Origin: a virus
Lineage: Duplodnaviria > Heunggongvirae > Uroviricota > Caudoviricetes
Direction: 5' to 3' (one strand)
IMG/VR virus record: IMGVR_UViG_2778261513_000004
DNA: 42,950 bases
The first letter of the stretch is position 1. Every line of letters begins with the position of its first letter. A program made the position numbers. Below, one piece after another: positions 24,001 to 27,000 of this stretch.

Positions 24001-27000
24001 CAGATATTGTTCTGCGGCATCACTCAGGGCTGGCGTATGTTCCCGGCCGACCGAGTCACACAGATAATCAACGAAACCGGACACAAGTTTTCGTTCACGA
24101 GAGGTGATCGCCCCACCGACAGGAGTCCAGTAATCGAATCCGAGTTGCAGGAGTTTGAAAAAACGCTTGTGAAATGCGTAGTTACGAACGCGCTTAAAAT
24201 CAGCGTGTATCCACTCACCTATTTTTATTTGATGCAAGAATTCGCAACTCTCCGGTGTTGCCGGGAGCAGTAATCCAGAAGAGGTATGTTTGATCAGTTG
24301 TATATGTGCCATCGGCTTTCTCCGGTGGCACGGTGTTACTCAGCAGGGGGTCAACCCTGCGCTGAATTGTAGATGAGTTCAATCGTCTTCAAAAGCAGAA
24401 AAGCCAGCTTTTAATCCAATTTCTTTTAATGTCCGTAATGATGTGACAAATTCATCTTCACGCAACATAAATCCGTCCGTCACATGCCCATTCAAGAGAT
24501 ATATTAACATAGCCCCACTAGGCTGTTGCAAAGCCCGTGAGCAATGAATGCAGTAACAACTAATAATTTCCCCATTTTCAACGCGCACAGCATAGAGACC
24601 ATCTTTATTAAAAATTTTGCGCAACTTCTTGAAATCCATAAACAGAAATTTTCCAGATTAATAGCGTTCCCCTGAAGGGTCCATCCCTCTTCTCCCTGCG
24701 CGCTAACTAAGCAAACACGATTCTATTTACAACAGTCAGTCCCTCAAGACTTACTGCTAAAAGAGTACACAAAAAGCTAATTTCTCCACCACAACAAAAA
24801 ACCCGCCGAAGCGGGTAAGTACGGGTGCGTTGAGGATGCCTGACACATCAGAGGTGGCGGGGGATTTCTCCCCCGCCGGGTCTCTTACTCCTCAGGTTCG
24901 TAAGCTGTGAAGACAGCGACCTCCGTCTGGCCGGTTCGGATTCGTACCTCGCAGAGGTCTTTCCTCGTTACCAGTGCCGTCACAACGACGGTTAAACAGA
25001 TGACGATCAGGGCGATTAACATCGCCTTTTGCTGCTTCATAGCCTGCTTCTCCTTGACCTTTTGGTCGGTAAGAGGCTAATCTACGTATGCAAAGCATAG
25101 ATGTGGCCTCAGATTAATGTTAAGCGTCTTGCCGGACGCGTAATGTTAACTGGGGCTTTTCTCTATCTGCCTTTGGTGTTCATGCCCGAGGCAGACAGCC
25201 TCAAGCACCCGCAGCTATTCTACTTAACTCCCGTTACCTCGCCAATATGAAATCAATCAGAAAGGTGATCCATAAGAACAATAGCAAGACCATAGATTGC
25301 CATCACAAACGCAATAGCCAGTGCACATTTCGCAACCAGCACGTTAACCTCCTGCATTTGACACTCGCATATGCTGATAAATATGTGGATGTCTCACTGG
25401 TGACTCAATAAAACTATTTGGTGTACTTATTCTATTTTTTCTGTGCAACACAACAAACCGTCATCACCAGCACTTCCTTAAATGCGCTAAGTCAGACACA
25501 AGCCAACATTTTAGTCCGCTTTGAGCGAAGAGCAGACATTGCGAAGAACAAAGTGGTAATATGATTCGGATGGTCACGTAATATTGATGCAATGAAGTTA
25601 AGTAATTTCAAGCTGGATAATTTTACATCTGTTCTGATAAAAGAATTCAATAATTAAGTATTTAAACACAATCTTCATTTCAGTCTATTAAATCTGAGGA
25701 GCTGTAAATTAAACACTTACTTTTCGATGAATACCCAATACAGTTCAAAGAGAAACTTGCTCAAAAATATCTCAGCCTTGAATTTTAAATTGAATGGTCG
25801 CACCGATTTTTCGAGAAAAAGATTTGATAGTATACTGTTTACATGATATCAACAATAATCTATTGATTATTACACAAAAAGCTCCTTAAGCATGGAGCTT
25901 TTATGTGATGCAATGAATTAATTCGAATTTAAAGAAGTTAAAATACGTCTATAATAATTAATTGTTGCTCCAGAAAGATAATCACCAGGAGCTTCAGAAA
26001 AACTTGATAATGCTATGGTTTTAAATAAATTGTTGTTTTTTGTCTCACTATTTCCTATTTGATATTGTTTATAGAACATATGCGTAACTTCGAGTACGTA
26101 TGACTCAAAAGCATGACCTTGTATTAAATAACCAGGGTGAGAATAAAATGGCTCATGCAGAAATAATAAGGCACATCTGCTTTCTTGTGTATTACCAATG
26201 TTGAATCCTTTCCATTTGGATTTTAATCTTTGTATACACTCATCTTTAATTATTAATTCCCCATCTCTTTCATGAAAAAGGATACCACATAATCCATCAA
26301 GATTAAACATTGCCATGTTATTAATTCTGGATATAAGGTTCAGCTTATGTATATATGCAACCTTTCTCTCAAGTTTCTTCCACTTATTTATAAATATGTC
26401 TACATCATCATTATTTGGGCAAAATATTCTTAGTATTTTCTTTAATAGTGCCGTTGTCCATAAATCGTTCTCAAAACTATATCCATGTGTAAAGTGAACA
26501 AAGTTATATAGCTGATCATTAATACCCAATGCTTCATTATGATCACGATCCATAAATACAATGTGATTATTTTCCGTATGCTGGGTTCCATTAATCCTAG
26601 CAGCAATCTGCTTTAAATTCTCTTTTCCACCTTCTATTCTAATTTCATAACGACCATCTAAGTAATTTTTTAACAATGCATTGTAGAAGATATAATCAGG
26701 AAGCTTTTTAATATCTGGGCTATTACCTTTACCTTCAACATGAACAATATAAGATACATCTCTCAACAGAGATTCAGCAATCAAACCTGCCGGCGTTCTT
26801 GATATGAAGTTAGCATCCATTGTTATTTATACCCTTATAGCCGACTCTCTTCTTCTCCCTATAATATCAGGAGAATGAGTAGCTAAAATAAATTGAGCTT
26901 TAGGATTTATCTTTACCAAAGCGTCAACAATTTTATCCTGCCACGTCACATGTAGCGAAACCTCAGGTTCATCTGCGATATATATAATATCTTTATTATC

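Follow-up and report, generated by a model that had tools for sequence, protein, structure and literature searches.

A small open reading frame between hok and ariB

The window analysed here is the whole 42,950-nt stretch of IMG/VR record IMGVR_UViG_2778261513_000004, the DNA of a virus of the class Caudoviricetes, and our subject is a small candidate gene on its minus strand, located between hok and a gene for a Toprim/DUF4435 protein (26820..25918). A preliminary description of this DNA, made from the sequence alone, had reported a 34-aa minus-strand open reading frame (ORF) between hok and a Toprim gene, with an alternative GTG start 4 nt after an AGGAGGT. Reading the window directly, we found it exactly so: the 34-codon ORF occupies 25357..25253 and reads MQEVNVLVAKCALAIAFVMAIYGLAIVLMDHLSD, and AGGAGGT at 25353-25347 is followed by the 4 nt TAAC and then by GTG at 25342, which gives a 29-aa form. 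The Toprim gene is identified here as ariB. Taken as AGGAGG (25348..25353, minus strand), the Shine-Dalgarno (SD) element is separated from the GTG by the 5 nt TTAAC, and the frame closes with a TGA at 25255-25253.

Comparison with related loci bears on which of the two starts is used. The ATG at 25357 reads ATA in the majority class and on the Shigella flexneri virulence plasmid pWR100, while the GTG is retained. Between AGGAGGTT and the GTG, relatives show at least eight different triplets, as expected of a non-coding SD-start spacer, and the pWR100 copy has ATG in place of the GTG. These observations together point to the shorter, GTG-initiated form as the conserved gene (25253..25342, minus strand; 29 codons, TGA stop; peptide MLVAKCALAIAFVMAIYGLAIVLMDHLSD), which is intact in 144 of 147 copies. 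The start that the preliminary description had offered as the alternative is thus the conserved one, and the five-codon extension from the ATG (25343..25357, minus strand) is not conserved, being leader, SD and spacer, not coding sequence.

The encoded peptide is strongly hydrophobic, with a mean Kyte-Doolittle value of 2.4-2.8 over residues 6-24 (19-aa window). It has a lysine near its N-terminus and a C-terminal tail that is acidic (D-R/H-L-S-D), not basic. All amino-acid changes among the variants are conservative; K5, Y17 and D29 are invariant, and on a face of small residues formed by A7, A11 and A15 only changes from A to T or V were seen. This profile, together with the coding constraint described below, agrees with the single hydrophobic helix of a small coding gene that had been proposed for the ORF. 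Since 67 ORFs of at least 20 aa lie within 4 kb of it, an ORF of such size means little by itself. Perfect AGGAGG elements placed ahead of a start codon with 25 or more codons number three in the window, where 0.6 would be expected, and the two besides this one head long genes. It is the comparative data that, in our assessment, raise the small ORF above chance.

Coding constraint on the 29-codon frame

Loci were gathered via an anchor outside the ORF, the hok promoter, which yielded 124 usable loci; 77 of them carry the full 29-codon frame with the same stop position and no insertions or deletions (indels). With loci found through the ORF itself, pWR100 and others added, the set comprised 144 intact copies representing 33 distinct sequences. 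Fifty distinct site variants were present in this set, 18, 8 and 24 of them at the first, second and third codon positions, respectively. Twenty-three were synonymous and 27 nonsynonymous, where a synonymous fraction of 0.30 is expected (P = 0.012); neither of the other two frames showed significant synonymous enrichment in the same test. Parsimony reconstruction on 41 unique sequences gave 0.92 changes per site for the ORF, distributed 23/16/38 by codon position (P = 0.0026 for the third-position excess).

The diverged pWR100 copy gave a concordant result. Measured against it, the ratio of nonsynonymous to synonymous substitution rates (dN/dS) was 0.20 in the proposed frame and 0.39 and 4.2 in the others, and only 1 of the 16 differences falls at a second codon position. 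Indels are confined to the region upstream, with none in the ORF and many in the upstream block, and there is a step in conservation at the SD. These patterns indicate that the reading frame is under purifying selection. The preliminary description had asked whether the ORF and not only the DNA is conserved, and had named a synonymous/nonsynonymous pattern free of coding constraint as grounds for refutation; both the synonymous share of the variants and the dN/dS against pWR100 speak for coding constraint. An antisense ORF on the plus strand (25247..25411), which RAST had called on pWR100 and which the HannyBb annotators had also called, was rejected as a candidate; it has an omega of ~1.5 and shows no coding constraint.

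Predicted promoter and translation signals

Approximately 30 nt upstream of the SD, on the same strand, lies a predicted sigma-70-type promoter, TTGAGT-17-CATATT, with its -35 element at 25403..25408 and its -10 element at 25380..25385. The -35 (TTGAA(T/G) or TTGAGT), a spacer of exactly 17 nt that is otherwise free, and CATATT persist across upstream classes that cannot be aligned elsewhere. They are also found on pWR100, where the spacer differs at 9 of 17 bases and both hexamers are intact. The -35 is absent in two recombinant classes and in a pseudogene lineage. Across the 41 unique sequences, parsimony assigned 2.47 changes per site to the promoter spacer and 1.92 to the leader, and none (0.00; P = 1.7e-5) to the -10. 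The SD took 0.33 changes per site, versus 1.9-2.2 in the flanking leader and the SD-start spacer (2.20 for the latter); the start codon also took 0.33, exclusively from GTG to ATG, and the stop codon 0. The SD and the start together account for 3 changes (P = 9e-5 versus the surrounding leader), and the SD variants GGGAGG and AGGAGA are still SD-like. These rates indicate that the translation signals, namely AGGAGG, a free 5-nt spacer and a GTG start (ATG on pWR100), are under selection, and they indicate the same for the predicted promoter.

The pseudogene lineage is represented by the loci L140 (about 950-1130) and L174 (about 4290-4470), at which the small gene is a pseudogene and the adjacent hok promoter is still intact. 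In this lineage the -35 reads CATCTC or CATTTC, the -10 TGTATT and the SD AGAAAG, the last two forms being seen nowhere else, and the frame carries a 2-nt deletion. The joint decay of -35, -10, SD and frame ties these elements into one functional unit.

Transcription entering and leaving the unit was considered from the flanking signals. A terminator-like hairpin with a T-run, AAGCTCC-N7-GGAGCTT-TTTT, can be read from the sequence after ariB (25872..25900, minus strand). It suggests that the transcripts of ariA and ariB, which form a PARIS-type pair described below, end before the small-gene block, and this would fit a small gene that needs its own promoter. No terminator was found between the small-gene stop at 25253 and the hok +1 at 25210, so read-through into hok is likely.

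Distribution and annotation

Of 5,426 complete Escherichia coli genomes, 1,405 contain at least 80% of a 501-bp segment that surrounds the ORF, often at only ~84% identity, and homology to other genomes begins at about position 25542. The peptide is encoded in 4 phage records. GenBank entries and metagenome gene callers list it sporadically, on hundreds of contigs, as a 'hypothetical protein' or 'membrane protein' of 29-34 aa. Longer database versions of 57 to 165 aa were rejected as artefacts, their upstream frames being open by chance; the 57-aa frame in the QueH-type class, in particular, lies partly over the end of a genuine 228-aa gene.

The peptide had no match in Pfam or NCBIfam (at E-values up to 10), in PHROGs or in PADLOC, where 0 families of the defence models were assigned to it. 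When 1.84 billion representatives were searched exhaustively with phmmer, just 5 near-identical clusters (at 50% identity), all 76-79% identical to the query, and no distant relatives emerged. When the stop-to-stop frame was padded to 46 aa, the homologue search retrieved only the query's own cluster, and a scan anchored on the hairpin upstream of the gene found only 2 loci. With only five clusters at this level of identity, the peptide family is narrow and confined to Escherichia and Shigella. We found no paper that describes the peptide sequence or the locus, and a literature search on hokD-adjacent small proteins likewise gave nothing relevant.

Relation to hok, Shigella plasmids and a cargo hotspot

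The hok/mok/sok transcription unit and its terminator lie downstream of the small gene on the same strand (24801..25210; Rfam RF01794, 105 bits), as a neighbour and not as part of it. RF01794, the sok/hok-leader model, spans 25210-25035, with the hok mRNA 5' end at 25210; the hok coding sequence runs from 25040 to 24885 (51 aa, HOK_GEF), mok from 25098 to 24892, and a terminator scan placed the hok terminator at 24816-24801. The hok promoter detected by the promoter scan, TTGGCG-17-TAGAAT (25217..25245, minus strand), starts 8 nt after the small-gene stop. A distance of 43 nt separates the end of the small ORF from the hok mRNA 5' end downstream, which places the ORF outside the hok/sok transcripts. 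Over the hok 3' end and its terminator hairpins there is a sub-threshold Rfam match to isrK, an Hfq-binding RNA of Salmonella (24796-24876, minus strand; 33 bits versus a gathering threshold of 50; E = 5e-5).

In phages, hok follows the ORF at 102 of 103 loci. Conversely, the ORF is absent from 47 of the 124 hok loci that share the same promoter. At 42 of these 47, the breakpoint falls within the ORF, where a 228-aa QueH/DUF208-like cargo gene terminates and only the last six codons of the ORF remain, and the other 5 have different breakpoints or reach a contig end. The peptide is also encoded on 124 Shigella plasmids of ~230 kb, including pWR100, and on similar E. coli plasmids, at 76.5% identity. 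In the plasmid copy that we examined, that of pWR100, an intact promoter, SD and ORF stand upstream of icsP and hok is gone; homology stops ~45 nt into the hok leader, and the hok promoter is kept. This remnant of a lambdoid small ORF-hok locus lies at about 2870-3190 of the extracted pWR100 locus (NZ_CP037924.1), or about 90820-91140 of the record. The comparison indicates that the well-studied region upstream of icsP on the Shigella virulence plasmid pINV descends from such a lambdoid locus, and the presence there of an intact small ORF and a hok-type promoter may matter for interpreting PicsP reporter constructs. The small gene is also genetically separable from hok: the unit persists on pINV, where hok is missing, and is itself missing from 47 of the 124 hok loci.

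On the other side of the small gene lie AriA (28029..26827, 400 aa; PADLOC E = 2.6e-41) and AriB (26820..25918, 300 aa; PADLOC E = 4.2e-9), which together occupy 25918..28029 on the minus strand and match the Pfam families AAA_15/AAA_21 and DUF4435, respectively. On this evidence they constitute a PARIS-type anti-phage pair, carried as cargo in a hotspot between the replication genes and hok. The same site in other genomes holds SIR2, AbiH with SIR2_2 or the QueH/DUF208-like gene, and the identical peptide variant of the window occurs beside PARIS or AbiH+SIR2 cargo. The right-hand genes, by contrast with the cargo, are constant: hok, Rem, DUF1367, YbcO, a Q-like gene and a Scabin-like ADP-ribosyltransferase. 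With the same variant beside different cargo and the right-hand genes constant, the small gene forms the constant edge of a lambdoid defence-cargo hotspot, and a constant border of this kind is useful for finding new cargo.

The left part of the conserved block (25390..25542, minus strand) is variable, rich in indels and substitutions, and includes a hairpin, GTCTGCT-N10-AGCGGAC, at 25538-25515. The hairpin is conserved and marks the left edge of the shared block; in some relatives, large insertions interrupt or adjoin its loop. The 13-nt sequence TACACAAAAAGCT (plus strand) is repeated perfectly and in direct orientation at 24766-24778 and 25871-25883, where ~0.01 would be expected by chance in 1.2 kb. 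Its copies bracket the small ORF-hok block, one just past the hok terminator and the other in the tail of the hairpin after ariB, which it overlaps; the repeat could represent a terminator tail common to both or the boundary of a module. Farther along, a 241-aa Pertussis_S1/Scabin-like ADP-ribosyltransferase is encoded at 21770-22495 (minus strand), directly after the Q-like antiterminator gene (22884-23426), and its counterpart in a near-identical prophage is named 'scabin-related ADP-ribosyltransferase' by PGAP. This position after the Q-like gene is the one at which stx sits in Stx phages.

Interpretation and alternatives

We consider it likely that the locus contains a real, unannotated protein-coding gene that specifies a 29-residue single-span inner-membrane peptide and has its own promoter. 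The selected translation signals, the reading frame and the predicted promoter together would make the small gene a self-contained unit. In a lysogen, it would be transcribed from its own promoter; during lytic growth, transcription could come from read-through of the early-right operon, and the transcript would probably run on into the hok unit. The peptide would span the membrane with its N-terminus (fMet and the invariant K5) facing the cytoplasm and its acidic tail facing the periplasm. Its sequence suggests helix-helix contact through the A7/A11/A15 face as the likeliest mode of action, with the invariant Y17 contributing and with the peptide itself or a host or phage membrane protein as the partner. 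It might then act in the manner of known small membrane regulators, not as a tightly repressed toxin.

Several observations weigh against this reading. The proposed mode of action is drawn from the sequence alone. The coding signal comes from just 87 nt, with P-values of 0.003-0.04; the parsimony counts are approximate, as the sequences recombine; and the window variant compared with the consensus has a dN/dS of 0.57, indistinguishable from the other frames. That the frame stays open was dropped as evidence, since only 1% of the possible changes create a stop. The promoter matches the consensus at only 8 of 12 positions and was missed by the promoter scan. RefSeq/PGAP annotates nothing in the ORF region in complete E. 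coli genomes, and the narrowness of the peptide family counts on the same side.

We found no direct evidence of transcription or translation of the small ORF, and no ribosome-profiling data for a carrier strain, including Shigella, in the literature. For pWR100, a table of transcription start sites (TSSs) from differential RNA sequencing of S. flexneri M90T is available (PMC7132871, Table S3), and it lists none near the predicted position at ~91027 and none at ~90866, the predicted position for the hok-type promoter. Its minus-strand TSSs in this region are 90709 and 90726, both of icsP, and 91318. The last is a primary TSS flagged 'novel transcript' that lies ~320 nt upstream of the small ORF and has no annotated gene downstream; a transcript that covers the ORF could start there instead. 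As the experiment represents one growth condition, and the region is near a stretch silenced by H-NS (-900 to -436 relative to the icsP TSS, just upstream of the small ORF; PMC10164555), the missing TSS, the chief evidence against the gene, is a negative result that is not decisive.

One alternative, an unlikely one, is a type I toxin-like, membrane-damaging peptide silenced by an RNA antitoxin, which would constitute a second toxin module beside hok/sok. The peptide is small and very hydrophobic and has an N-terminal lysine, like the N-terminal part of Hok, and its gene adjoins a bona fide type I system, 43 nt upstream of it in a prophage accessory region and tightly linked to hok in phages. 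However, the known type I toxin families are represented in Pfam, NCBIfam, PHROGs and PADLOC, none of which gave a match to the peptide. No RNA antitoxin could be recognised either: the promoter and terminator scan gave no plus-strand promoter or terminator overlapping the ORF, Rfam matched no small RNA at the ORF and only the hok leader nearby, and no inverted repeat complementary to the leader or the translation initiation region was present within 1.2 kb, these being computational tests suited to conventional RNAs. The predicted leader is short (~30 nt) and its SD is strong and not consistently sequestered, which sets it apart from the usual type I toxin mRNAs; the peptide ends in an acidic tail, not a basic one; and on pINV, in ~124 plasmids, the gene stands alone with no recognisable partner. 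Nothing beyond size and hydrophobicity therefore supports a type I toxin with an RNA antitoxin. Of the two likenesses drawn in the preliminary description, 'phage membrane-targeting small protein' is a fair generic label, whereas the type I toxin likeness is not supported, no toxin-family match and no antisense RNA having been found.

Cis-regulation of a downstream gene, hok or, on pINV, icsP, is improbable. The unit would then be a second or interfering promoter, or a leader peptide or upstream ORF whose translation only couples or uncouples read-through, and the peptide itself would be functionless. The geometry is suitable, as the small-gene stop lies 8 nt before the hok -35 with no terminator between the units, and on pINV the unit stays upstream of icsP along with what remains of the hok promoter. 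Where the ORF has otherwise been replaced, its last 6-15 codons are still kept, and that DNA belongs to the upstream region of the hok promoter. However, a pure leader would leave the amino acids unconstrained, and nonsynonymous changes are depleted and all conservative; moreover, 47 of the 124 hok loci do without the unit, and no conserved RNA structure joins the ORF and the hok leader. Such a structure was sought with RNAalifold in 12 diverse sequences and rejected (covariation term -1.06 kcal/mol; 1 of 46 pairs compensatory). Single-sequence folds vary between variants, with the SD neither consistently free nor consistently sequestered.

Equally improbable is a non-functional ORF that hitch-hikes with the hok promoter as a homology arm for cargo exchange, with a fortuitous frame, SD and hexamers: the ORF is conserved to a level similar to the adjacent hok promoter and leader, cargo-swap breakpoints fall inside it, and the absent M90T TSS, the silence of PGAP and the statistically uninformative open frame would all fit, but hitch-hiking predicts uniform conservation, not an invariant -10, SD, start and stop beside free spacers, and it leaves unexplained the third-position skew with second-position depletion, the GTG-to-ATG swap at the start and the way in which all signals have decayed together in the only frameshifted lineage.

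The reading that we prefer therefore remains a small membrane-protein gene with its own promoter. More far-reaching versions of it are doubtful. In one, the peptide would be a functional third player of hok loci, co-transcribed into hok from its own promoter and acting as a membrane modulator, an immunity factor or a second effector with or against Hok; in the other, it would be the founder of a new class of RNA-independent prophage membrane toxin or exclusion peptides, kept by Shigella upstream of icsP. If the small gene is translated, it is a widespread gene that RefSeq leaves unannotated, at least 80% of its 501-bp block being found in ~1,400 of 5,426 complete E. coli genomes and the peptide being encoded on ~124 Shigella plasmids, and it adds a member to the poorly charted small membrane proteins encoded by prophages. 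The finding by itself opens no long-standing question.

Comparison with known systems

The nearest system in position is Hok/Gef (PF01848; RF01794), which is the immediate neighbour on the same strand and, like the small peptide, has a lysine-containing N-terminus followed by a transmembrane helix. The small peptide differs in its length, 29 aa versus 51 aa for Hok, in having no periplasmic C-terminal domain and in giving no PF01848 match, and no mok-like overlapping frame, antisense RNA or fold-back leader was found for its gene. The two also occur apart, the small gene without hok on pINV and hok without the small gene elsewhere.

Phage morons, of which bor and lom of lambda are examples, are autonomous accessory genes inserted in lambdoid genomes. 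The small gene resembles them in its location, an accessory region that separates the replication genes from the Q/late genes. Its predicted promoter (TTGAGT-17-CATATT with the invariant -10) could fire in a lysogen and would then be a further likeness. The small gene is also absent from many relatives and is for that reason not needed for phage core functions. It differs from a moron in that no terminator of its own was found between its stop and the hok +1, and in that it is a constant border of the hotspot and not variable cargo.

AcrZ, MgtS, MgrB, KdpF and CydX are small single-pass inner-membrane proteins of E. coli. The small gene has no sequence relationship to them, and it is carried on a prophage or plasmid accessory region, not in the core genome. 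The likeness lies in their design: fewer than 50 aa, one helix that fills nearly the whole peptide, and a gene with its own SD and start that annotation pipelines often miss. The small-residue face of the peptide is, as far as its sequence can tell, compatible with partner binding.

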